Sequence record: PX915678.1
Reading direction: 5' to 3' (one strand)
From: a phage
DNA: 64,000 bases
Shown here: positions 6,756 through 63,731 of the stretch, in pieces
Layout: each line of letters starts with the position of its first letter
Numbering within the stretch: position 1 is the first letter of the stretch
Notes under the pieces: generated by a model
What the model was told of the DNA's origin: nothing
What the model saw: only the letters and a program-made list of their open reading frames with translations
Database searches by the model: none
Made by a program: the position numbers and the translations under genes

Positions 6756-7391
6756 TCACAGTTCAGATGCTACGGTGATTACTGCTTCAATGTTTTCTGC
6801 CGAGCGTTTAATGTCAAGATACACATTACCGTTTTTAGCGATTTTACATGACATTCCGATATCAGTAAATTTCTGAATATGATGTTCCATCATTTTGTAT
6901 CCAAAAATTCGCATATTTCCATTGTTGTTAATTTCAAAATTGCGAATTCCATGAGTGCGTTTTTCTAAAATAGCAAGATAGTTACTGCGGTAAGTTTCAA
7001 CCTTTTTAAGAACAAATCCATTTTCATCTAAAAGTTTTAACATGAAGTCTTTATCTTCTTCCATATCGGAAGTAATCTCACGAGCTTTACGAGTTGCTCG
7101 TTTTTTCAGCAGTTCAGGAGCATTTTCCTGCGCGTATAAAGTTGCTGCATTTGAAATAATATCCTGAGCTTCACCTGTAATGATTAATCCATCACCAGAT
7201 TTCTCCACCAGGCCTTTTTTAATCAATACCCCAATATTACTATTAACTACTGCGTTACCTAAATCTGGATGCACCTCACGAACTTCTGCAGCTGTAATGA
7301 AATCTTTCTTAGCAATGGTAATTAAAATCGCAGCAGTTTTTTCATTCAGAACATCGTTAGAAGCTTTGATGATGTAAGTTACTTTAGACAT
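6756..7391 (-). CDS. motA: Middle-transcription activator MotA
   Basis: 211 aa; same length as T4 MotA; position upstream of gene 52. Confidence 0.9.
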   Translation of the reverse strand: MSKVTYIIKASNDVLNEKTAAILITIAKKDFITAAEVREVHPDLGNAVVNSNIGVLIKKGLVEKSGDGLIITGEAQDIISNAATLYAQENAPELLKKRATRKAREITSDMEEDKDFMLKLLDENGFVLKKVETYRSNYLAILEKRTHGIRNFEINNNGNMRIFGYKMMEHHIQKFTDIGMSCKIAKNGNVYLDIKRSAENIEAVITVASEL

Positions 7392-7432
7392 TTTCTAATC
7401 TCCGTAATTCTGTATCAGTAGTTGATAGTTGT

Positions 7433-7462
7433 ATAGTACCACAGTATGCTTTGGTTGTAAAC
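7433..7462 (-). promoter_or_regulatory. Early promoter upstream of motA (part of a terminator-promoter cassette)
   Basis: GTTTAC (7457..7462), 18 nt, TACTAT (7433..7438); A-rich upstream element; about 85 percent identical over about 95 bp to the cassette at 63715..63809. Confidence 0.55.
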
Positions 7463-7494
7463 CGTTTTGTGAAAAAAATTTTTGAAATAAAAAA

Positions 7495-7514
7495 GGGAGA
7501 GCCTCGGCTCTCCC
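7495..7514 (-). terminator. Intrinsic terminator hairpin
   Basis: GGGAGAGC/GCTCTCCC stem followed on the minus strand by a U-run (forward aaataaaaaa 7485..7494). Confidence 0.55.
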
Positions 7515-7519
7515 TAAAA

Positions 7520-7669
7520 TTACTGCATGACTGTGATAACTGTCATGATAACACGTTGAATTCCGAACGCAAGAAGACCTCCTGCTACTGCTGGAACAAC
7601 ACCTAAACCCGCCAGTAAAATGCTACCAGATACTAATGCAGCGCTTGTAATACCAATGAATGGACTCAT
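7520..7669 (-). CDS. Small hydrophobic membrane protein (49 aa) downstream of gene 52
   Basis: ATG overlaps gp52 stop (ATGA at 7666..7669); GAGGA SD; fully hydrophobic; not in ORF track. Confidence 0.45.
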   Translation of the reverse strand: MSPFIGITSAALVSGSILLAGLGVVPAVAGGLLAFGIQRVIMTVITVMQ

Positions 7670-8994
7670 TTGATTTCCTCTAAATCTTTGGTGTATTCTG
7701 TAACTACATCAGTAGTTTTCCAATATTCGTTTTCTTCTTTCTTAGCTTTAGCTTCTTCAGCAAGTTTCTTTGCTTCGTCGGAAGTCATATGAAAAATATT
7801 CATTCCGACTAGTTTATCAACATAAGAAGAATACATATCAATTTTAGAAAGTTCTTCGGTCAGTTCTTTGCGAGTTTTACCTTGTACAACAATTTCACCT
7901 GAAATTACTTTCTTAATGAAATGTGCCTTGGCAAAAGCTAAACGAAATGCTGATTCAGTTTCTTTGATTTTGTTATCAATTCGTTTTTGGACATAAGTTT
8001 TACGAACTTCAACGAAGTCTTTGATTAAATCAACTACATTATCGTAAACTTGCAGCTTTCCTTTCTCATTAATAACGGTGATATTCTGGGAACGACGCTC
8101 AATCAACCCGAAGTCTTTCATAATTTTTGCATGACGTTCTTCTTCGTTATCACTCAAAGAGTATTCTTTACGGAATTTAACTTTAAAGCCAAAACCATGC
8201 TCACCGCAAGCATCATCCCACGTAATGAAACCTTTATCTTCAAGCGGGTCTAAGATTTTACTCACGTAAGTTTCACGATCATACTTATATGGAATCTCAG
8301 TGATATGCATTTGAGTTCGTGAAGTAAACTTGTATGTTCCACGAATTTCATATTGACCGTCAATTTCAACGACTTCACCACGAAATTCTGGGAATTCTAC
8401 CTTAGGTTTAATTACTTTCTTTCCTTGAAGAGCTTGCAGTACAGCTTTCTTGACAGAAGAAACGCTATGAGGAAGAATGTAAGTTGCATAACCAGTTGCA
8501 ATACCGGAAACACCGTTAAGAAGAACAGTAGGAATAATAGGCAAATAGAAAGCAGGCGGAATGTGTTCTTTATCTTGATGTACCGGAGCATATTCAGTAT
8601 CTTTATATACATTATAGAAATTTTTACTTACACGAGCAAAAATATAACGACTTGCCGCTGCTTTTTGAACGGTACGAGAACCAAAGTTTCCTTGACCATC
8701 TAACAAAGGAAAGTTATTATTCCAAGTGTTAGCCATCAAAGCACCTGCGTCTTGCGCAGAGTTTTCACCATGATGATATCCAAGGTCCGCTACACCACCT
8801 GCAATAGAAGCGAGTTTGTGAAACTTATCTTTATTTCCTCGTGCCAAATCAAGAGCTCGAGCAATAACAAATCGTTGAACTGGCTTAAATCCATCAATCA
8901 TATTTGGGATAGCACGATTTTCAACCGTGTACATAGCATAAGCCAATGCTTCATTATCAATGATACTTTTTAAATCGCGATTATTCAGTTGCAT
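7666..8994 (-). CDS. 52: DNA topoisomerase II medium subunit gp52 (GyrA-like cleavage-religation domain)
   Basis: 442 aa as in T4; GyrA-like N-terminal motifs (MIDGFKPVQRFVIARA...). Confidence 0.9.
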   Translation of the reverse strand: MQLNNRDLKSIIDNEALAYAMYTVENRAIPNMIDGFKPVQRFVIARALDLARGNKDKFHKLASIAGGVADLGYHHGENSAQDAGALMANTWNNNFPLLDGQGNFGSRTVQKAAASRYIFARVSKNFYNVYKDTEYAPVHQDKEHIPPAFYLPIIPTVLLNGVSGIATGYATYILPHSVSSVKKAVLQALQGKKVIKPKVEFPEFRGEVVEIDGQYEIRGTYKFTSRTQMHITEIPYKYDRETYVSKILDPLEDKGFITWDDACGEHGFGFKVKFRKEYSLSDNEEERHAKIMKDFGLIERRSQNITVINEKGKLQVYDNVVDLIKDFVEVRKTYVQKRIDNKIKETESAFRLAFAKAHFIKKVISGEIVVQGKTRKELTEELSKIDMYSSYVDKLVGMNIFHMTSDEAKKLAEEAKAKKEENEYWKTTDVVTEYTKDLEEIK

Positions 8995-9456: not shown

Positions 9457-9463
9457 ATTTTCC

Positions 9464-9544
9464 TCACTGGCGTCCGAAGACGCCTTTGGTTTTAAGATTA
9501 TTACGATAGAACTGCATCACGTGTTCGTTATGGAAATTACTCAT
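9464..9544 (-). CDS. stp: Stp peptide (26 aa; host restriction-system modulator that triggers PrrC anticodon nuclease)
   Basis: Translation [26 protein letters not shown] matches T4 Stp as I recall it; ATG overlaps ndd stop (TAATG at 9542..9546); below track size cut-off. Confidence 0.75.
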
Positions 9545-9999
9545 TAGTATGCCTGCAAAACAAATTTAAAGTTATCAGCCAACATACGGTTCATTTCTTC
9601 AAGCGTTTGATATTCAGAATGATGATTACGAGTAAACGCTAAAGCTAACTGGCCTTTTCCAAATCCTGTCGTCAGAGGTTTCATCTTAGAAGCAGGTAGA
9701 TAAAATACTGTATATGGAACATTATTATTTGCAATAGTACGCGCAAGCTGAGACCGACGCTGACGAATATGACTTAGAACTGCACTGAATCCTTGCTTAG
9801 AACGCTGATTACCTACATAAAATCGTGCAGATACACACGGACTATCAAATGGACCACCAAATTTACTCACTAAAAAGTAAAATCCAGGTGTAGATAAAAT
9901 GTCTTTATGTGGAGTTCCAAAAACCCATTCACCGCCCTTGATTGTACCAATAACAGTAGCACCTGCATTATTCAAATCAGTAACAGTCATGTATTTCAT
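9544..9999 (-). CDS. ndd: Nucleoid disruption protein Ndd
   Basis: 151 aa as in T4 Ndd; position between denB and stp. Confidence 0.8.
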
Positions 10000-10058
10000 A
10001 TTAATTTCCTCTAATTATTTTCTACTCCAAGGCCGCATGAATACACACGGCCGATAAA

Positions 10059-10274
10059 TTAATCGTCGCAGTCGACGCTCAATTCCCAGAACTCTTCTAC
10101 AGTATAAGTTTCAGTATCGTTTTCAATACAGAAACGTTCATTACTGTTATTTGCTAAAGTAGCATTAACTGTCATTTTCTCGCTAGTGCTCTTAAGAGGT
10201 GAAATACGAATTAACTGATCACCACTATCCAAGCAAAAAATTTCGCCAACTTTTACATCTTTAAAAATTTTCAT
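10059..10274 (-). CDS. Hypothetical protein (ndd-denB interval)
   Basis: 71-aa track ORF. Confidence 0.5.
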   Translation of the reverse strand: MKIFKDVKVGEIFCLDSGDQLIRISPLKSTSEKMTVNATLANNSNERFCIENDTETYTVEEFWELSVDCDD

Positions 10275-10389
10275 AATTCACCTCAGGGAGTATAAAATCC
10301 AAATGCAGTTGTTGACCATCCCATCCAATACGGAAAATTTGCACCAACGTAAAACATGAGAATATAAAACCAACCACTCAGCAAATTCA

Positions 10390-15749: not shown

Positions 15750-17566
15750 TATTGGCTCATCCATTCTTTACGAAGGTCAGCATTATCTCCCATGAGCATT
15801 TCAAAAAGCTCTTTCCAGTTCTCAGGAAGTTTAACAACATCATATACTGGGTTTTGAATCATCTCACGATATTCAGATTTTTCCAAAGAGCCAAGTCCCT
15901 TAATATAACGGATGCTATGTTTAGGTAGAGCATCTTTGGCACTCTCATATTCAGCGACTGTATAAAACCATTCTTGTTTTTTACCGACCTGAGCGATGAT
16001 TACGGGAGTTTTGACGAAGCGAATTCTTCCTTGTTCAAACAGTTCTGGCCAATTACTAAAAAATCCGAGCAGAGAAGGATAAATGCTTCCTAGACCATCA
16101 TGGTCAGCATCAGTCATAATAGCAATATTATGATAATTCAAGTTTTCAGCTTTTTCGCCAAGAACTAATCCAGTGATTGCGCAAATATCAAACAGTTCTT
16201 TGTTTTTAAGCATATCAGCATATGACATACCCCAACTGTTGAGAACTTTACCACGCAATGGATAACCACCGTGAAGTTCTTTATCACGAACATCAATAAG
16301 ATATCCGATAGCAGAATCACCCTCAGTCAAGAAAAGAGTCGTGTCAGCATCTTTACCACAAAGATTCGCTTTAATGTGTTTATGAACCTTAGCTTTAGAG
16401 GCCTTTTTAGCTGCTTTAGTTTCTGCTGCTTTTTCTGCCGCCAATTTACGAGCCAAGGCAGCTTCAATAATTGGCATTAAAATTGCTTCATTGTTTAAAA
16501 TAGCGCGTGAAATCTTTTTAGCATCAAGTTGAATATGACTACGGATTTCACCAAATGGAGAAGTCAAACGCTCTTTAGTTTGAGAATCAAATCGCATGTT
16601 TTTCATATCACGAACAAACATAACGATAGTCAAACATTCTTTGACACGAGCTTTAGTTACATCAATTTTGAACTTACGTTTGATTTGTGGAATAAGGTCT
16701 TCACAAATATCATCCATAACGCAGTCAATATGATGGCCACCATTCTTAGTATGAATGTTATTGACGTATGTTAATTGACGAAAACCATCCGGTGAACGAC
16801 CAACCGCAATAGAACAATTTTCTTGTTCTTGAACAATAGCATGCTCATCATATTGGCGTGCATATTTCTTAAAATTACCCTGAACCTTTTTACCATTAAA
16901 GGTAAATTGAATATCAGGATAAACTACTGCAAGTGTCTGGAGACGATCCAGTGTAATGTCAAGATAAACTTGAGATAGCTCATTAGTTTCAAATGACATA
17001 AAATCAGGAATGAAAGTAACACGAGTTCCTTTCCATTTTCCAGGAATAGTTTCCCATGATTTATTTTCCATGCCATTTGAACAACGAACTACAATATTAT
17101 TTTGACCGTCGCCAGTTTCACCGACAAACATCACAGAAAAAATGTTAGTTAAACTAGAACCAACACCGTTCATACCGCCAGTGACACGTTCTTTATCATC
17201 ACCGAAGTTACCACCTGCTTTTGGAATAGTCCAGGCGGCAACAGGACCGGGAATTTCTTCACCAGTAGGTGTTTTAACCATCGCTTGTGGAATACCACGA
17301 CCGTTATCTTCAACTGTTACTTGATTGTTTTTGATAGTAACATTAATTTTATTCGCGAATTTAAACTTAGTACGAATACCTTCATCTACTGAGTTATCGA
17401 TAATTTCATCAATAAGCTTAACAAGACCAGGTACATACTGAACACTTTCCCATTTACCAAACAGAAAGCGCTCATGCATTTCATTAGCGGAAGAGCCAAT
17501 GTACATGCCGCTACGCTTTTTGATATGTTCAATATCGCTCAGAATTTTAATTTCATTCTTAATCAT
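15749..17566 (-). CDS. 39: DNA topoisomerase II large subunit gp39 (GyrB-like ATPase), uninterrupted form equivalent to T4 gp39 plus gp60
   Basis: 605 aa from ATG at 17564..17566 (track start is GTG); GHKL ATPase motifs (MYIGSS..., IDNSVDEG); one continuous ORF. Confidence 0.9.
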   Translation of the reverse strand: MIKNEIKILSDIEHIKKRSGMYIGSSANEMHERFLFGKWESVQYVPGLVKLIDEIIDNSVDEGIRTKFKFANKINVTIKNNQVTVEDNGRGIPQAMVKTPTGEEIPGPVAAWTIPKAGGNFGDDKERVTGGMNGVGSSLTNIFSVMFVGETGDGQNNIVVRCSNGMENKSWETIPGKWKGTRVTFIPDFMSFETNELSQVYLDITLDRLQTLAVVYPDIQFTFNGKKVQGNFKKYARQYDEHAIVQEQENCSIAVGRSPDGFRQLTYVNNIHTKNGGHHIDCVMDDICEDLIPQIKRKFKIDVTKARVKECLTIVMFVRDMKNMRFDSQTKERLTSPFGEIRSHIQLDAKKISRAILNNEAILMPIIEAALARKLAAEKAAETKAAKKASKAKVHKHIKANLCGKDADTTLFLTEGDSAIGYLIDVRDKELHGGYPLRGKVLNSWGMSYADMLKNKELFDICAITGLVLGEKAENLNYHNIAIMTDADHDGLGSIYPSLLGFFSNWPELFEQGRIRFVKTPVIIAQVGKKQEWFYTVAEYESAKDALPKHSIRYIKGLGSLEKSEYREMIQNPVYDVVKLPENWKELFEMLMGDNADLRKEWMSQ

Positions 17567-56235: not shown

Positions 56236-56414
56236 TTAGAAATAGACTTTTCACCATTAGAATAATAAACTTCAAGTTTAGCACGGTTATTTTTAATTTG
56301 AATAACCTTGGCTGTCATCAAAGTTCCATACCCATAGTAAACTGCAACTTCATCACCTACATATACCGCGCTTCCGCGGTAGTCATGGATATAATCAGTT
56401 CCTTCGAGCATCAT
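56199..56414 (-). CDS. Hypothetical protein (71 aa)
   Basis: Track ORF; ATGA overlap with nrdC stop. Confidence 0.5.
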   Translation of the reverse strand: MMLEGTDYIHDYRGSAVYVGDEVAVYYGYGTLMTAKVIQIKNNRAKLEVYYSNGEKSISKWKYGDCMVKLG

Positions 56415-56674
56415 TTAAAGTATTCCCGCAATTGGTCAAATCCGCCAATATGACTTCCACCAGGAGCAAATACTTGTGGCATCGTCAGTCCAATTTGAGT
56501 ATCACGACCTAGTTTCGTTAGAAGCTCAGCGATTTTCTCATCATCAAAAACACCTTTTTCCGGCATAATGTTGATAAATTCAAATGGCTGTTTCTTTACA
56601 GTCAAAAGACGTTTTGCATTATCGCAATACACACATTTATGGATGTTGCTATCATAACCATATACTTTAAACAT
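56411..56674 (-). CDS. nrdC: Thioredoxin/glutaredoxin NrdC
   Basis: 87 aa as in T4 thioredoxin; active site CVYC. Confidence 0.85.
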   Translation of the reverse strand: MFKVYGYDSNIHKCVYCDNAKRLLTVKKQPFEFINIMPEKGVFDDEKIAELLTKLGRDTQIGLTMPQVFAPGGSHIGGFDQLREYFK

Positions 56675-56920: not shown

Positions 56921-57310
56921 TTAATCCAAAATATTATTAGGCATTGGTTGAACACTCGCAAGTTCTTTAAAGAACTCAGTAGAGTCAGGTAATTTAACCA
57001 TTTCCGGAGCATGCTTGCTAAATTTGTGTTTACAATGACGGCATTTATATTCAAGTTCCGGTTTACGCCAGTTAATCAATTGAACCTGTTCAGTACCGCA
57101 TTCAGGACAATTAGGAACATTTTTAGAAGCCCTTTCGCGACGTTCAACCATAGCTATAATAGCATCCCAGGCTGGAGGTTTAAAGTCTAAATCATCACAA
57201 CCATGAATCTTTCCACGCATTTCTAAATCGTCTTCTTCACCAGCCATAATAATTTTAATTAGACTGGAATTACTTGAAGCTGCAATATCTTCTAATAGAC
57301 GCTTTTTCAT
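56921..57310 (-). CDS. Zinc-finger protein (129 aa)
   Basis: Track ORF with CPECG...CRHC pair. Confidence 0.55.
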
Positions 57311-58233
57311 TTCAGTACCTCAATAGCATCACGTAAACCATTTGCTTTGGCGGTTAAAGCCTTAAGAACTTTAGTATGCTCTTCAATCTGTTTTTCAACT
57401 TCAATCAAACGGGCACTGAGATATTCGCGTTCTTCTTTCATAGTATCATTCCCATGATTGGGCTTTGGTGCAGATTTAAATTTACTAGGGTCCTTTAACT
57501 TAATAACAACTTTAGTTTCAAACAGTGAAAGACCATAATTCGTATTATCATCAAAGGATTCAACTACGTCCATTTTAGACAATAACGTACGAAGATTATA
57601 AGTCAAAGAACGAATCGTTTTATTATGTTTATTAGCTTCACGCGGTTTCATATATGGAAGATTTTTATATATTTCATGCGGAGCACAAACAATAATTGAC
57701 AATTCAAATGGTCCATTCTGTGATGATGGAATGAATTTAGCCGTAACCCAATCTTTTACATTTACATTAATAGTACGGTCATCGCCATGACAAAACAGTC
57801 TACGAGAATGCTTAAAAAGCATATTCACATTATTATTAAATTCGTGTGAAAACTCACTAGCAAATTTTTCTTTACTATTTTTAGAAAACCATTCTTCTAA
57901 ATAAGTTCTTTTCACGTCATTAATAATATTAAATGTAACAACATTAGCATTTGATACATTAGTCTCAATGTAGCTTGGATACATAAATTTTTTAACATTA
58001 TTAACAGCTATCACAGAAGATAGTAATCGGGAACGTTTGAACCACTCTAGCAAAGAACCAAGAGAATGTGAATATGCATTTTGTGTATCTTTACAAATAT
58101 GGTTTTCCCATCCAATATAGTCTAAAAAATCACGAAGAATATTATTGATTACTGCTCTGTGTCCGATCTGATAATTACGGTGTTTAGTAATAAGACTGTC
58201 AAAATAATCAATATAATGTTTACGAGTTTTCAT
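57307..58233 (-). CDS. Hypothetical protein A with C-terminal coiled coil (308 aa)
   Basis: Track ORF; C-terminus [42 protein letters not shown]. Confidence 0.6.
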   Translation of the reverse strand: MKTRKHYIDYFDSLITKHRNYQIGHRAVINNILRDFLDYIGWENHICKDTQNAYSHSLGSLLEWFKRSRLLSSVIAVNNVKKFMYPSYIETNVSNANVVTFNIINDVKRTYLEEWFSKNSKEKFASEFSHEFNNNVNMLFKHSRRLFCHGDDRTINVNVKDWVTAKFIPSSQNGPFELSIIVCAPHEIYKNLPYMKPREANKHNKTIRSLTYNLRTLLSKMDVVESFDDNTNYGLSLFETKVVIKLKDPSKFKSAPKPNHGNDTMKEEREYLSARLIEVEKQIEEHTKVLKALTAKANGLRDAIEVLK

Positions 58234-58285
58234 GTTCTTCTCACTTGGTTAATGATTTATGCTCCGAGCCATCCTTGGCTTTAAA

Positions 58286-59287
58286 TTACTTAATTAACTG
58301 TAAAGCTTGTTCAAGACGATCCAGGCGATTAACAGATTCTTCCCAAATCCTTTTAGCCTGCTCATATTCTTTCTGCGCTTTATTAGAAATTTCTAGAACT
58401 TCTTTATAAGCCTTTTCTAGTGCAATAACTTCTGGACGAATTTCTACAGGTTCAGGCGAATCATCAAGATTATCCATTAGTTCCTCAAGTGTAATTTCTT
58501 CTTTAGGAGTATTCACAATTTCATCACATTTTTGTTGGTAAATTTCTTTATCAGTCGGTGAGTACGCACATTTCACTTCACGAAGACTAACTACAATTTT
58601 ATATCCTTCCCAACCGCATATATTCTTAAAAGGATACGTATGAATATTTTCTACTGTTTCCATACAAAGTAATGCGGTTTCTAATTGACGAGTTATAGTG
58701 CTAGCAATTGAGAAAAATTTATTAATGTTCTTTTGGTTAGTTTCTGGTGTAAAAAATCCATAATTCACAAAAATAGATACTTTATTTTTATCAAGTTCAT
58801 ATTCTTTTATGATAATCATATCAGAAGCCAAAGGATGAATTTGACGATAATCGCCATAACATAATTTAGAAGCTGATTTTAGAATCTGTCCTTTGAAAAG
58901 TCTGAAATTACTAATCCAACGACGAGTAAAAATATTCTCAGGGTCTTCTTTATTATTAAGATGATAAGAATTAACATCACCGAACCAATTATATCCTACT
59001 ACATCTTTGGTTCGTTTAATTTCTTTCCCAAAATTACCAAGAATATCCCGATTAACCAAATATGAAAGAAGACGAGACTCTTTAAAGGTTTTCTTGATAA
59101 CATCTTTATCTACACGGCTAGAAATTTTACGAATTTCATGAATAAATTTAACAGAAGAAACAATACTTGCGTCAACACTATTGAGCCATTGATTGATAAT
59201 AGAAATAACGCTATTTTGACCAAACATCGGTATAGCTTTATCATCAATAACACTATTGAATGATTTGATATATTCGTTACGAGTCAT
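58286..59287 (-). CDS. Hypothetical protein B with C-terminal coiled coil (333 aa)
   Basis: ATG at 59285..59287 with GAGGAG SD (track start 59317 lies in the promoter); motif QILKSASKL. Confidence 0.6.
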   Translation of the reverse strand: MTRNEYIKSFNSVIDDKAIPMFGQNSVISIINQWLNSVDASIVSSVKFIHEIRKISSRVDKDVIKKTFKESRLLSYLVNRDILGNFGKEIKRTKDVVGYNWFGDVNSYHLNNKEDPENIFTRRWISNFRLFKGQILKSASKLCYGDYRQIHPLASDMIIIKEYELDKNKVSIFVNYGFFTPETNQKNINKFFSIASTITRQLETALLCMETVENIHTYPFKNICGWEGYKIVVSLREVKCAYSPTDKEIYQQKCDEIVNTPKEEITLEELMDNLDDSPEPVEIRPEVIALEKAYKEVLEISNKAQKEYEQAKRIWEESVNRLDRLEQALQLIK

Positions 59288-59315
59288 ATTAATCTCCTCA
59301 GTAGAAAGTAAGAAC

Positions 59316-59345
59316 ATTATACCACATCCTTGTGGCGAAGTAAAC
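59316..59345 (-). promoter_or_regulatory. Early promoter inside the coiled-coil gene array
   Basis: GTTTAC (59340..59345), 18 nt, TATAAT (59316..59321); spacer inverted repeat ACCACA-TCCT-TGTGG. Confidence 0.5.
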
Positions 59346-60367
59346 TAGTTTAGTGCATTTAATGCATTGTTCAGTTTAGAACGTTGCTTCGTAAGATTTT
59401 TGACTTTTTCTTGAGCTTTTTCTAGTATCTTTTCAGCTTCTAGCACTTCATTAGTTGCTTTAACGAGTTCATCATCTACTGCCTTGATAGACTTCTCAAT
59501 CGCATCTGCATGCCATTTTTCAACAGGTTTAAGACTCGGATTTTCAACAGGAAGAAAATTCACTTTATTGAATTTCCATGAATCCTTATTACCTGAGCTA
59601 TACATCCAAAATTTAGGATCGTTTGATGAGTAATTGGATAAATTTAATTTATCTTGCACTTCTTGCTTTTTCTCTTGCGGGACTTCGTCCTTTCTCAAAA
59701 AATCGTATTTAAATGAAACGATCATATCAAGTTCATATGTTGTTGTGTCTAATTTAAATCGCTCAAAACGAGGTAAAATCTTAGACTGAACACTAGCAAC
59801 AACATCCATATACTTAAATGCTTCTGTCAACTGTGATTTAAGGCATTCACAAATTGAAAGAGAATTTTTTGTGTTAGGTTTAAAGCTAATTCGTGCAGTT
59901 CTATTATTTTCTTTTAATGGTCTTACTTCCATCTGAAGAGTATAACCATCAAATTTCAGATTCTTTAAGTTAATATCAGAACCTTTTAATCGACTCGCAG
60001 TTGATAAAATTTGCTTTAATTGTTTACGGAATAGAGCAATAAATCTCCATTCAATACGATAATGATTTGGATTGAAAAATCCAGATGATAAATCGACCTT
60101 ACTTTGACCAACGCCTTGAACAAATAAAGGATTTTTATAATCAATAGTTTTACAGAAATCGGTGAGCTGCTCACGGGCCGTCATTTGTGTAATATATCCT
60201 GCTTTACTAAAATTACGCACCCATTCACTGCTATTCGTATACTTAAAGTGATGAATAACACGATTAACTTTATCAGGGTCTAAATTATTTTCACACAAAA
60301 ATGTCATAACATCACGAGTATAGCTGGCATTACGAACCATATCTTCAATTTGAGAACGAGTTTTCAT
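59345..60367 (-). CDS. Hypothetical protein C with C-terminal coiled coil (340 aa)
   Basis: Track ORF; motif QILSTASRL; Lys/Glu-rich C-terminal heptads. Confidence 0.6.
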   Translation of the reverse strand: MKTRSQIEDMVRNASYTRDVMTFLCENNLDPDKVNRVIHHFKYTNSSEWVRNFSKAGYITQMTAREQLTDFCKTIDYKNPLFVQGVGQSKVDLSSGFFNPNHYRIEWRFIALFRKQLKQILSTASRLKGSDINLKNLKFDGYTLQMEVRPLKENNRTARISFKPNTKNSLSICECLKSQLTEAFKYMDVVASVQSKILPRFERFKLDTTTYELDMIVSFKYDFLRKDEVPQEKKQEVQDKLNLSNYSSNDPKFWMYSSGNKDSWKFNKVNFLPVENPSLKPVEKWHADAIEKSIKAVDDELVKATNEVLEAEKILEKAQEKVKNLTKQRSKLNNALNALN

Positions 60368-60375
60368 GGTGTTCC

Positions 60376-61266
60376 TTAAGATTTAAGTAAATCAACAATT
60401 TTAATTAACTTTTCACGCTCAGATTTAGCTTTACTATTCAGTCCAGATAGTCTGAAAATTTCATCATCATATTGTTGAATAGAAATATTCAGCTCTTCAA
60501 TCTGTTTATTAAAATAATCAATTTGTTCAAAATGTTTTTCGTTACTATGAACTGGTACAGGTTTTGTAGGCAATGTAGTTGAACTGGATTCATCCGGGCG
60601 ATAAATTAAAATACAACTTGAACCAATAGGGCATTTTGCATCAGATGAATATTCTAATGTTCCAGCTTCTTTTAAAACTTCAAAAGCTAAACAGAGATGA
60701 TGACCCATATTGACATAATCTGTAGAGTGAGCTCTGATATAATAATCATCGCCACGAGTACTAAATTTAAAGCATTTAAGGTCTTCTGTATTATTGGTCT
60801 TAAAAATCATTTGTTTATCTAGACCTTTAGCTAATCGAGCGCCTAATGCTAATAATCGTCTTTGATTTTCCCACAAATCCGCAATCATTTGATCGAATGA
60901 TAATTTTGGCATTAGTCGACCATAAAGGTCATATCCTTTATTATAATTACGAAGGATTTCACTCGCGTTAATACGAGACAATGCTCCAATTTTATTAAGG
61001 GCTTTCATAATGCGATTAGATAAACTCATTCCAGACCCATTTGTTCGCTGCAAATGTTTTTCTAATCCAAATCCAATATCAACTTTAAACTTATCTAAAA
61101 TTTCTGCATGAACATCTCTGTCAATAACATTCAAATCCAAAGTTGGGTTAAATCTATGAAAAAATTTATCCGGCTCTCCACGGCGAAATACAGTCCATTC
61201 ATTCATCATTTTTTTATTAACTAAAGATTTAATTACTGCATTGACATTATTAATTACTACTGACAT
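60376..61266 (-). CDS. Hypothetical protein D with C-terminal coiled coil (296 aa)
   Basis: ATG at 61264..61266 with GAGGA SD (track start is TTG); C-terminus IEELNISIQQYDDEIFRL...KLIKIVDLLKS. Confidence 0.6.
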   Translation of the reverse strand: MSVVINNVNAVIKSLVNKKMMNEWTVFRRGEPDKFFHRFNPTLDLNVIDRDVHAEILDKFKVDIGFGLEKHLQRTNGSGMSLSNRIMKALNKIGALSRINASEILRNYNKGYDLYGRLMPKLSFDQMIADLWENQRRLLALGARLAKGLDKQMIFKTNNTEDLKCFKFSTRGDDYYIRAHSTDYVNMGHHLCLAFEVLKEAGTLEYSSDAKCPIGSSCILIYRPDESSSTTLPTKPVPVHSNEKHFEQIDYFNKQIEELNISIQQYDDEIFRLSGLNSKAKSEREKLIKIVDLLKS

Positions 61267-61273
61267 ATTTTCC

Positions 61274-61681
61274 TCACTCAATTTCAATTTTACTAAATAT
61301 ACAGAATAAGATGGAACAGACTATATAAGCACCACACACAGATTGAACTAATACCATTCCAAAGAACCAAACAATATTATCAAACAATGTCTGTTTTACG
61401 TCGAAAGGACGTAAACTTACAGTAATATTATCACCTTTTTCTATTGAAGAATACATCTCTGGGGAAATATATTCACTAAATCTATAACCGTCTTTAAGTT
61501 CATATACGGCAATAAACGATAAACTAGACCCTTTTCCTTGTGTTCCTGTAATGGTATTAACTACAGTAACATCATAATCTTTATAATGCATATAATCATT
61601 AATTGCGTAATAACCATATGCAACTACTACACATAAACAACATATCAATAAATTCAATCTTTTAATTATCAACTGTTTCAT
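61274..61681 (-). CDS. Membrane protein (135 aa) with N- and C-terminal TM helices
   Basis: Track ORF; hydrophobic segments LNLLICCLCVVVAYGYYAI and IVWFFGMVLVQSVCGAYIVCSILFCIF. Confidence 0.55.
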   Translation of the reverse strand: MKQLIIKRLNLLICCLCVVVAYGYYAINDYMHYKDYDVTVVNTITGTQGKGSSLSFIAVYELKDGYRFSEYISPEMYSSIEKGDNITVSLRPFDVKQTLFDNIVWFFGMVLVQSVCGAYIVCSILFCIFSKIEIE

Positions 61682-61736: not shown

Positions 61737-62264
61737 TTATGCGAGTACCGTCTTTAACCGTTCTTCAAACTTCCGAAGAGTATTTTGGCGTTCAGCTCTT
61801 TGCTTTTTGTAAGTTTCAATACGCTCTGAAATGAGAGTGTATCGTTCATTTACCGATTCTTTCATAAAATCAGGAATTTCACGAGAAGCTTTAATCTCGT
61901 CAAATTTATCAATAACAGCTTGCTCTTCAGCAATTAAGTTATCATACATTAAAATATCTTTCTTGATGAACTCAATATCTTCTTGAGTTACACGAGATAA
62001 TTTAGATGCTTTATCCTTTTTGTACTGTTCGTTAGTATCACGAGACCAGTGCAATGTACGATTTTTATTCGTATTTTTGTAAATTTCTACAATACCGATC
62101 TCATCAATAATAACGATCCAATTCCAACGGGATTTGTAAATTTGTCCTCCATCAACAGTGATTTCACCTCCGATTGAGATGTCGTTAAAGAACTTGCTTT
62201 GCGCTTCAGATTTAAATTTACCATCGTTGTAATTTACCAAGTTGAAAATATCTTTAGCGTTCAT
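61737..62264 (-). CDS. Hypothetical protein with C-terminal coiled coil (175 aa)
   Basis: Track ORF; GGAGG SD; Lys/Glu/Arg-rich helical C-terminus. Confidence 0.55.
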   Translation of the reverse strand: MNAKDIFNLVNYNDGKFKSEAQSKFFNDISIGGEITVDGGQIYKSRWNWIVIIDEIGIVEIYKNTNKNRTLHWSRDTNEQYKKDKASKLSRVTQEDIEFIKKDILMYDNLIAEEQAVIDKFDEIKASREIPDFMKESVNERYTLISERIETYKKQRAERQNTLRKFEERLKTVLA

Positions 62265-62728: not shown

Positions 62729-63697
62729 TTATTTCAGAAGAGTAACCTCAGCGATTTCTTCCCAACCGTTTTTGTCGGTCATAATAAAGTCAGCAAGATA
62801 AAGAGCAGTACGCAGTGAAACATTGCGTAAACGATTAACATTAACTTTCATCCATGATAATGCTTTATAAGTTTCTTCATCAGAAAGACCGCGCTTTTGC
62901 ATCATGTCAGTTGAAAGAATAACATCTTCAACCCTGACCATAATTTCTTCATTAGTGTGAACACCCAAATCTAAATAAACTGAGCGGGACACTAATGCTT
63001 GTAAATGTGGAGCAAGTTTAGTACCACGGTCTAATTCGCGGTCAATGTCAACGTTTGTGATAAAAACAATCGTTCCTTTAAATTCAAACTCACGCTCAAT
63101 GCCTTTTTCTTCTAAGTAAGAAGACGCAGTGCTCCAGCAGACTTTACGGGTCTCTCCAGTGTCCAGAGCGGCTTTTAGAAGATTAAGAATGTCCATATCA
63201 GAGAAAACATCTACATCATCAATCAAAAGGACAGAATTCTCTTCACGATTATTCCAAAGCTGCTCATAAAGACCAATACCAGAGATTTTACCATTAATGC
63301 TTTTATATTCAATGTATCCAATATCATTTGCTTTATTTAAAGCTTTATCTAAAGAATACGTTTTACCAATACCTGCTGCGCCAGAGATAATTAATGAACG
63401 AATATTTCCGTTAATAATACCATTCGTCATCATTCCCATAACATTAAATCTTTTATTAATGCGGGTTTTCATATCTTCATATGATTCTTTAACTTCTTCA
63501 ACTTTTACACCATCATATGAAATATCTGATTTGTAAACCCAAACACCGCGACGTTTACCGTCAATTTCAACAAAAACTTTACCATCTCCTTGTGCATCTA
63601 CCGGAGCATTATCTGGGAACCATTCGCCTAAGAGCTCAAAAGTTCCAGAGATTTCTTTACCGAAGTAGATACCCTTATTAATAGTTACAGTTTTCAT
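62729..63697 (-). CDS. AAA+/P-loop ATPase of unknown function (322 aa)
   Basis: ATG at 63695..63697 with GGAG SD (track start is TTG); Walker A GAAGIGKT, Walker B LLIDDVD. Confidence 0.7.
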   Translation of the reverse strand: MKTVTINKGIYFGKEISGTFELLGEWFPDNAPVDAQGDGKVFVEIDGKRRGVWVYKSDISYDGVKVEEVKESYEDMKTRINKRFNVMGMMTNGIINGNIRSLIISGAAGIGKTYSLDKALNKANDIGYIEYKSINGKISGIGLYEQLWNNREENSVLLIDDVDVFSDMDILNLLKAALDTGETRKVCWSTASSYLEEKGIEREFEFKGTIVFITNVDIDRELDRGTKLAPHLQALVSRSVYLDLGVHTNEEIMVRVEDVILSTDMMQKRGLSDEETYKALSWMKVNVNRLRNVSLRTALYLADFIMTDKNGWEEIAEVTLLK

Positions 63698-63731
63698 TTT
63701 ATTCTCCAAATCCGTATCAGTTGATAGTTGT

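Follow-up and report, generated by a model that had tools for sequence, protein, structure and literature searches.

The closest described counterpart of the locus analysed here, an array of four consecutive open reading frames (ORFs A to D) on the minus strand at positions 57307-61266 of a 64,000-nucleotide (nt) stretch of phage DNA (sequence record PX915678.1; the whole stretch is called the window below), is the nrdC.5 gene of phage T4. It has been reported that a T4 clone lacking accessory genes was unable to infect Escherichia coli ECOR17, that infection by this deletion clone was regained when dsr1 was deleted from the host, and that plasmid-borne dsr1 protected strain MG1655 from the same clone (PMC9391042, Srikant et al. 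2022, eLife). Moreover, T4 nrdC.5 alone on a plasmid restored the infectivity of the deletion clone, and all genes deleted in this clone were non-essential (PMC9391042). We looked in the text of this paper for the extent of the evo 3 deletion, that is, whether the counterparts of ORFs A, B and D were lost too, and it is not given there. Dsr1, a common defence, is a sirtuin-domain protein believed to deplete nicotinamide adenine dinucleotide (NAD+); according to a 2026 paper, its sensor domain is homologous to the sensor of Avs7, and the sensor domain of Dsr1 is triggered by the phage major capsid protein (PMC13581612). In the literature that we searched, nrdC.5 was the only phage gene found acting against Dsr1, and no work on anti-Dsr1 activity or on the Pfam accessions was found beyond the 2022 paper; on nrdC.3, nrdC.4 and nrdC.6 the only text found was a genome announcement in which NrdC.4 is mentioned in passing.

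The DNA of the window was assigned by its sequence to the genome of a Tequatrovirus (T4-like phage). The 4.7 kb around the array shared 95-96% nucleotide identity with E. coli phages, among them HMD-9 and EcNP1, and in a nucleotide search 458 phage records each covered at least 80% of this region. ORFs A, B, C and D were identified as the orthologues of T4 nrdC.3, nrdC.4, nrdC.5 and nrdC.6, in T4 order, and the order nrdC.6-nrdC.5-nrdC.4 is the same in the window and in the T4 record NC_000866. The four genes, with lengths in amino acids (aa), are:

57307-58233, minus strand: ORF A, nrdC.3 orthologue, 308 aa, basic globular core plus C-terminal helix, 95.5% identity with T4 NrdC.3
58286-59287, minus strand: ORF B, nrdC.4 orthologue, 333 aa, 96.7% identity with T4 NrdC.4
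59345-60367, minus strand: ORF C, nrdC.5 orthologue, 340 aa, 95.6% identity over 340/340 residues of T4 NrdC.5
60376-61266, minus strand: ORF D, nrdC.6 orthologue, 296 aa, 96.9% identity over residues 1-259, before the frameshift of the T4 record

Counteraction of the Dsr1 sirtuin defence has been shown for T4 nrdC.5, of which ORF C is the orthologue. A first, sequence-only reading of the window had described a block with no function that it could assign, and this is out of date for one of its members (PMC9391042). On balance, with confidence slightly better than even, we favour the view that the array encodes early-expressed inhibitor paralogues, in each of which a conserved coiled-coil handle carries a variable core for recognition, and of which NrdC.5 neutralises Dsr1 and the others likewise target host defences.

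The coordinates and starts of the four ORFs agreed with the sequence-only reading. In a program-made ORF list both B and D begin further upstream, with an ATG at 59317 for B and a TTG at 61287 for D. It is the shorter starts that are correct, as they agree with the T4 annotation; furthermore, for B, a GAGGAG lies 7 nt upstream of the ATG at 59287 and this ATG is downstream of the -10 element of the promoter described below, and, for D, all homologues start with MS. In NC_000866 (10067-10140, equivalent to window positions 60376-60490) we observed a 1-nt deletion in nrdC.6, by which CTGAATAT has become CTG-ATAT. This deletion causes a frameshift that replaces the conserved C-terminal helix and gives a product of 275 aa instead of 296 aa, and in the DNA 3′ of the deletion the original frame is still conserved. 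A second record named T4, OZ209023, encodes a full-length 296-aa NrdC.6. The deletion in NC_000866 either arose by mutation in a laboratory strain or reflects an error in sequencing.

Kinship and architecture of the four proteins

At the sequence level, A and B are clearly homologous. BLASTP aligned them over 240 residues with an E-value of 6e-5, hhalign gave 97.6% (97.4% after removal of the tails), and reciprocal hidden Markov model (HMM) matches across the two families ranged from 1e-11 to 5e-16. Both proteins also matched PHROG 1435 over their full length (A, E=9.6e-101; B, E=5.6e-168). Consequently A, which had initially been taken as merely a more divergent member, forms with B the closest pair of the array.

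B and C are probably homologous. When only their cores were compared by hhalign, 197 columns aligned colinearly (P=1.9e-4, 47.6% probability), and the alignment pairs positions conserved throughout the C family, including QILKSASKL/QILSTASRL. This local motif had been noticed before and proved to be real, lying inside the colinear profile alignment; its spacing to the upstream W and F residues had been misquoted. We also searched 578 ORFs from all fetched loci with the C profile, and its best matches outside its own family were Tegunavirus gp111 (1.5e-3), A-type proteins (1.8e-3) and B-type proteins (0.036), all of them other array-type proteins. C matched the Pfam family DUF7235 (PF23882) over its full length with 428.2 bits against a gathering cut-off of 30. 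A, B and D gave no DUF7235 match at E ≤ 0.1, leaving C as the sole member of this family.

Each protein was found to consist of a core and a C-terminal tail. Lys, Glu and Leu together (K+E+L) make up 36-44% of the last 46-58 residues and 22-24% of the cores, and a simple ad hoc scan found heptad-like hydrophobic spacing in all four tails. AlphaFold2 models were available for C (mean predicted local distance difference test score, pLDDT, 61; core about 70-89) and D (pLDDT 74), and in both the C-terminus was a single unbroken helix, at residues 284-339 of C and 246-295 of D. The Lys/Glu/Leu-rich, heptad-like C-termini described in the sequence-only reading were thus borne out by composition, heptad scan and predicted helices. 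A coiled coil is the probable state of this amphipathic helix, which is about 50 residues long. The tails are located as follows:

57310-57447, minus strand: C-terminal tail of A, residues 263-308, coiled-coil-like (heptad scan, end motif, K+E+L 43%)
58289-58432, minus strand: C-terminal tail of B, residues 286-333, coiled-coil-like, ends RLEQALQLIK (heptad scan, K+E+L)
59348-59518, minus strand: C-terminal long helix of C, residues 284-340, ends KLNNALNALN (AlphaFold2)
60379-60531, minus strand: C-terminal long helix of D, residues 246-296, ends KLIKIVDLLKS (AlphaFold2)

The far ends of the tails are alike. All four array proteins finish with an end motif, L..[AIVS][LIVM]..[LI][KND], which was not found in any of the 84 other window ORFs of at least 80 aa, and 6 of the 20 invariant residues of the C family fall within its last 17 positions. 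The cores carry a second motif at the end of a helix, approximately h-L-x-x-[AGS]-[SAR]-[RK]-L-x(1-3)-G-x(0-1)-D, which falls within residues 118-160 of each of the four window proteins. It was found in array proteins only, with no occurrence among about 529 other ORFs or among 11,560 shuffles. Both motifs were defined after seeing the data, and these counts are supportive rather than proof. The core motifs are:

57754-57825, minus strand: core motif of A, residues 137-160, NMLFKHSRRLFCHGDDRTINVNVK
58832-58891, minus strand: core motif of B, residues 133-152, GQILKSASKLCYGDYRQIHP
59960-60016, minus strand: core motif of C, residues 118-136, end of the second core helix, KQILSTASRLKGSDINLKN
60793-60861, minus strand: core motif of D, residues 136-158, end of the second core helix, RRLLALGARLAKGLDKQMIFKTN

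The models of C and D share one order of elements, in which two helices and a beta-hairpin are followed by a third helix, a second beta-hairpin, a linker of low confidence and finally the long helix. This suggests a link between the two proteins at the level of predicted structure. In C, residues 224-283 form the linker ahead of the long helix, and their low pLDDT indicates that it is probably disordered. Foldseek searches of BFVD returned 4 significant matches for C and 12 for D, all of them T4-like phage proteins of 222-378 aa. Three of the four matches of C, from Klebsiella phage Mineola, Yersinia phage fHe-Yen9-01 and Aeromonas phage 65.2, were also matches of D. The Mineola protein (gp080) is encoded directly upstream of an nrdC.2-like gene, the position of nrdC.3 in T4, and its best BLAST match was T4 NrdC.5 (2.6e-4).

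The place of D in the array is the point at which common ancestry of all four, as proposed in the sequence-only reading, has to be weighed. The A-B part of that proposal is well supported and C is a probable member; for D, kinship is suggested by predicted structure and motifs. D might instead not be a paralogue of A to C at all, its globular-plus-long-helix layout having arisen independently, so that the array would be a set of unrelated accessory genes. D indeed had no significant similarity to A, B or C in BLASTP or profile-profile hhalign comparisons, where neither the C-D nor the A-D match was significant. It matched a family of its own, PHROG 2257, over its full length (E=1.4e-150), and D homologues carry the precomputed Pfam assignment PF26899; Pfam has three separate families for the array, and PHROGs unites A and B only. 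The fold evidence is noisy as well: template modelling (TM) scores to the common neighbours were low (0.25-0.5) with large root-mean-square deviations, model confidence was moderate, and the representative of its own family was missing from the top 50 BFVD matches of the C model. Against an independent origin stand the common element order of the C and D models, the three BFVD neighbours that they share together with the restriction of all significant matches to T4-like phage proteins, and the similar motifs at the same place in the predicted topology. Moreover, Tegunavirus gp94 matched both Mosigvirus A-type proteins (BLASTP 4e-6) and a D profile built without gp94 (5e-5), and appears to provide a modest bridge between D and A. 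Given these observations, we consider an independent origin of D quite unlikely, and infer that D shares the ancestry of the other three.

Evolution and expression of the array

The array genes diverge much faster than their neighbours. Between genera, protein identity was 56% for A, 43-51% for B, 23-29% for C and 30-50% for D, compared with 84-91% for nrdC, 67-86% for nrdC.8 and 78-79% for nrdC.10 in the flanks. Among close relatives, the ratio of nonsynonymous to synonymous substitution rates (dN/dS) was 0.09-0.31 in the array and 0-0.13 for nrdC, nrdC.8 and nrdC.10, indicating that the array genes are kept by selection and yet evolve several times faster than the genes around them. Within the families, the tail was more conserved than the core in all 12 comparisons (for A, 71-80% vs 55-58%; for D, 62-70% vs 29-45%).

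The composition of the array also differs between genera:

Tequatrovirus: D-C-B-A
Gaprivervirus and Dhakavirus: D-C-B
Mosigvirus: D-C-A or D-A

Within Tequatrovirus, two forms of nrdC.3 were found that are about 61% identical. About 140 records were at least 90% identical to nrdC.3 of the window and 359 fell in the 60-80% band, and the neighbouring genes were above 90%; this pattern suggests allele replacement by recombination. G+C content was 0.29-0.30 over nrdC.3 and nrdC.4 (57500-59000) and about 0.33-0.39 in surrounding windows.

Several rearranged versions of the array genes were observed in other phages. In a chimeric protein of 299 aa (P0056; three contigs, the longest 167 kb), a part of NrdC.5 (residues of about 146-272) continues into a part of NrdC.3 (residues of about 136-308), with the junction at a short match, NKVN/NNVN, and nrdC.4 is thereby deleted; the called ORF begins at an internal Met of NrdC.5. 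NrdC.6 of Shigella phage Sf25 (P0094, 378 aa) carries an internal tandem duplication of about 82 residues, with IRAHSTDYVN...QIEEL repeated, that spans the second half of the core and the linker. In the same phage, tblastn found nrdC.4 and nrdC.6 in two pieces each. In the T4-like contig IMGVR_UViG_2974742932_000001 (about 7054-8090), nrdC.4 is split into ORFs of 193 and 158 aa and is probably a pseudogene.

An early promoter had been placed within the array, and we found it present, with its hexamers conserved across genera:

59316-59345, minus strand: early-type sigma-70 promoter upstream of nrdC.4 (consensus scan, 10/12 matches plus TG)

It consists of GTTTAC (59345-59340), a 17-nt spacer and TG-n-TATAAT ending in the -10 hexamer at 59321-59316, followed by the Shine-Dalgarno sequence GAGGAG of nrdC.4 at 59299-59294, and its -35 hexamer overlaps the nrdC.5 stop codon. 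Both hexamers, their spacing and the Shine-Dalgarno sequence are kept in T4, two IMG/VR T4-like contigs, DK-13 (Gaprivervirus) and JS98 (Dhakavirus), that is, across three phage genera, while the spacer sequence diverges. The consensus scan found no excess of promoter-like sites in the region (30 vs 30.7 in shuffles), and the promoter claim rests on conservation rather than on the scan because the site count is no higher than in shuffles. A terminator-like hairpin in the B-A spacer (58264-58278) was also considered; it lies on the plus strand only, with no T-run on the coding strand, and was not accepted as a terminator.

These data bear on whether the four proteins could be subunits of one hetero-oligomeric complex with one function, anti-Dsr1 or otherwise, assembled through the C-terminal helices. 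Such a complex would agree with the similar L..A(L/I)..LK endings of all four tails, with the tails being more conserved than the cores, and with the adjacency of the genes on one strand. However, plasmid-borne nrdC.5 alone restores infection by the deletion clone (PMC9391042), the variable composition in Mosigvirus, Dhakavirus and Gaprivervirus shows that no fixed complex is conserved, and the promoter divides the array. We regard a single complex as very unlikely.

Proposed counter-defence role of the array

We propose that the array proteins are built on one duplicated scaffold, with a fast-evolving alpha/beta core, a flexible linker and a better-conserved C-terminal amphipathic helix. The tail would serve assembly or docking, and the core would change quickly because it touches host proteins that also change, which for NrdC.5 would be Dsr1. 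NrdC.5 may act as a non-enzymatic inhibitor, in amounts matched to its target: made early, it would oligomerise through its tail and bind Dsr1 ahead of the late-made trigger. A pre-emptive binding inhibitor fits best because nrdC.5 has early-type promoters and the reported trigger of Dsr1 is late. For NrdC.3, NrdC.4 and NrdC.6, this scaffold would be directed at further defence proteins of the host or at other variants of them. A scaffold retargeted to other defences would explain the diversification of the cores, the variation of copy number between genera and the conservation of the tails. The counter-defence direction suggested in the sequence-only reading is thus supported by the finding of divergent, related early genes in a plastic T-even region, one of which, nrdC.5, is anti-Dsr1 in T4; for A, B and D such roles are extrapolations.

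Several points weigh against this proposal, besides the missing sequence similarity of D, the noisy fold evidence and the retrospective definition of the motifs described above. Experimental support is confined to nrdC.5 and to one plasmid complementation in T4 (PMC9391042). The gene-wide dN/dS values are below 1, so positive selection is not demonstrated. Finally, A, C and D have cores with a strong positive charge (+6 to +13; isoelectric point, pI, 9.1-9.5), which would also fit nucleic-acid binding and another kind of host take-over role.

The last point leads to the possibility that only NrdC.5 acts in counter-defence, while NrdC.3, NrdC.4 and NrdC.6 are relatives or look-alikes with other early take-over roles, for example as basic nucleic-acid-binding or host-remodelling coiled-coil proteins. 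Besides the basic cores, it would be in line with the lack of functional data for A, B and D in the searched literature and with the frequent change of function among paralogues. However, A, B and D show the same fast divergence, copy-number variation and allele replacement as nrdC.5, a pattern typical of genes that interact with the host. Laboratory hosts do not require them, according to the report that the genes deleted in the T4 clone were all non-essential (PMC9391042), and no match to a known DNA- or RNA-binding domain was found in Pfam or NCBIfam. We consider this alternative rather unlikely, although the weightiest of those discussed here.

We then considered what the proteins resemble. 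Scans of all four against Pfam, NCBIfam and PADLOC returned nothing except DUF7235 for C, and sequence searches of the PDB with A, B, C and a D-family profile gave nothing meaningful at E ≤ 1. A HMMER search with the C core against 1.8 billion representative proteins returned nine matches, eight of which were T-even-type phage relatives or fragments; the ninth was a weak match to a repeat protein (E=6.5e-4), and no bacterial or distant homologues were found in this search. The array proteins show no sign of being enzymes, as they match no Pfam enzyme family and have no corresponding NCBIfam, PADLOC or PDB match. This bears on the idea that NrdC.5 and its relatives do not inhibit by binding but repair the damage enzymatically, for instance by restoring NAD+ or by breaking down a signal. 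There is a precedent in phages that rebuild NAD+ against NAD-depleting defences (NARP pathways). Yet neither an enzyme family nor a solved fold was matched in the Pfam, NCBIfam and PDB searches, no catalytic set can be recognised among the invariant residues, most of which are hydrophobic or Arg/Lys, and core identity in the C family falls to 23%, which would be unusual for an enzyme that retains its activity. We therefore judge an enzymatic role extremely improbable. Two further candidates were rejected: a DNA mimic of the Ocr/Arn type, as the cores are basic or neutral and not acidic, and a thioredoxin or glutaredoxin, as no such family was matched by the four proteins in Pfam or NCBIfam at E ≤ 0.1.

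The block itself is known, its genes having been annotated in T4 for decades and the role of nrdC.5 having been published in 2022; the kinship of nrdC.3, nrdC.4 and nrdC.6 to nrdC.5 was not found described in the searched literature. If inhibition on a common scaffold is correct, the probable common design, in which a wider set of T4-like phage proteins probably takes part, makes nrdC.3, nrdC.4 and nrdC.6 three specific counter-defence candidates in the best-studied phage, and it gives a hypothesis at the level of domains, in which the variable core would recognise the target and the conserved tail would serve assembly. It also offers an explanation of why this block varies between therapeutic T4-like phages, with possible consequences for host range. 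Going further, we tentatively suggest, as a speculation that is more apt to fail than to hold, that each of NrdC.3, NrdC.4 and NrdC.6 switches off an immune sensor of its own in the host, for example another protein with the capsid-sensing domain of the Avs7/Dsr1 type, and that the family, with its hypervariable recognition core, has been duplicated and retargeted across T4-like phages. Such an immune-evasion family would, with the same reserve, reach to relatives in phages of Klebsiella, Yersinia, Erwinia, Acinetobacter and Aeromonas.

Neighbouring genes and comparison with known systems

At lower coordinates than the array lie nrdC.2 and the nrdC gene itself:

56411-56674: nrdC (thioredoxin gene)

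Many GenBank phage records call nrdC.3 to nrdC.6, and also nrdC.8 to nrdC.11, 'thioredoxin', a label that seems to have spread from the gene names 'nrdC.x'; this widespread mis-annotation of the array genes is flagged here. nrdC.2 (56921-57310, 129 aa; PHROG 1474) had zinc-ribbon-like matches (Zn_ribbon_8, E=1.6e-5) below the Pfam cut-off. It is variable in close relatives (62-97% identity) and has 129 aa in the window vs 104 aa in T4. On the other side, nrdC.8 (61737-62264, 175 aa) has a helical heptad-like tail at residues of about 143-174, without the C-terminal end motif, and is highly conserved, unlike the array. A 175-aa protein of Klebsiella phage KPV15 was a weak structural match of the NrdC.5 model (E=2.4e-3). 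nrdC.10 (62729-63709) carries a P-loop-like GAAGIGKT motif, is conserved between genera (70-79%) and adjoins nrdC.11 (63812 onward), annotated as a nucleotidyltransferase, with which it may form a conserved two-gene module.

Compared with T4 NrdC.5, ORF C has the same length, neighbours and promoter context and 95.6% identity. ORFs A, B and D share with T4 NrdC.5 the layout and, with varying certainty, the ancestry, but fall into different families, A and B into PHROG 1435 and D into PHROG 2257/PF26899. Significant structural neighbours of the models of C and D were limited to proteins of 222-374 aa from other Straboviridae, namely Mineola gp080, fHe-Yen9-01 gp111 and gp94, and proteins of Erwinia phage Cronus and Acinetobacter phages Acj9, Acj61 and 133, besides the Aeromonas phage protein named above. 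Of these, Mineola gp080 and the two fHe-Yen9-01 proteins carry the tail seen in the array and resemble it in their C-terminal endings. These Straboviridae neighbours differ from the array in being only 10-22% identical and mostly single copies rather than arrays. In fHe-Yen9-01 (Tegunavirus), gp94 (292 aa, 9459-10337) and gp111 (313 aa, 16382-17323) have the same layout and are non-adjacent, gp111 lying between nrdC.11-like and nrdC.10-like genes.

Among counter-defence proteins, DSAD1 of SPbeta-like Bacillus phages resembles NrdC.5 in being a phage protein that neutralises a defence-associated sirtuin NADase. DSAD1 is reported to counteract or inhibit DSR2, which is activated by the phage tail tube protein (PMC10973363, PMC11087589, PMC11290490). 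We found no sequence or fold similarity to DSAD1. By analogy, inhibition by NrdC.5 is proposed to be non-enzymatic, similar to that by DSAD1. A second comparison is offered by dmd, tifA and adfA of T4, the anti-toxin-antitoxin ('anti-TA') island; we know of no relationship among these three genes. Like the array, the island brings together small early genes that are non-essential and lie in a plastic part of the T4 genome; each gene of the island counters a different host defence (PMC9391042). It differs in that nrdC.3 to nrdC.6 appear to be diverged copies of one scaffold.

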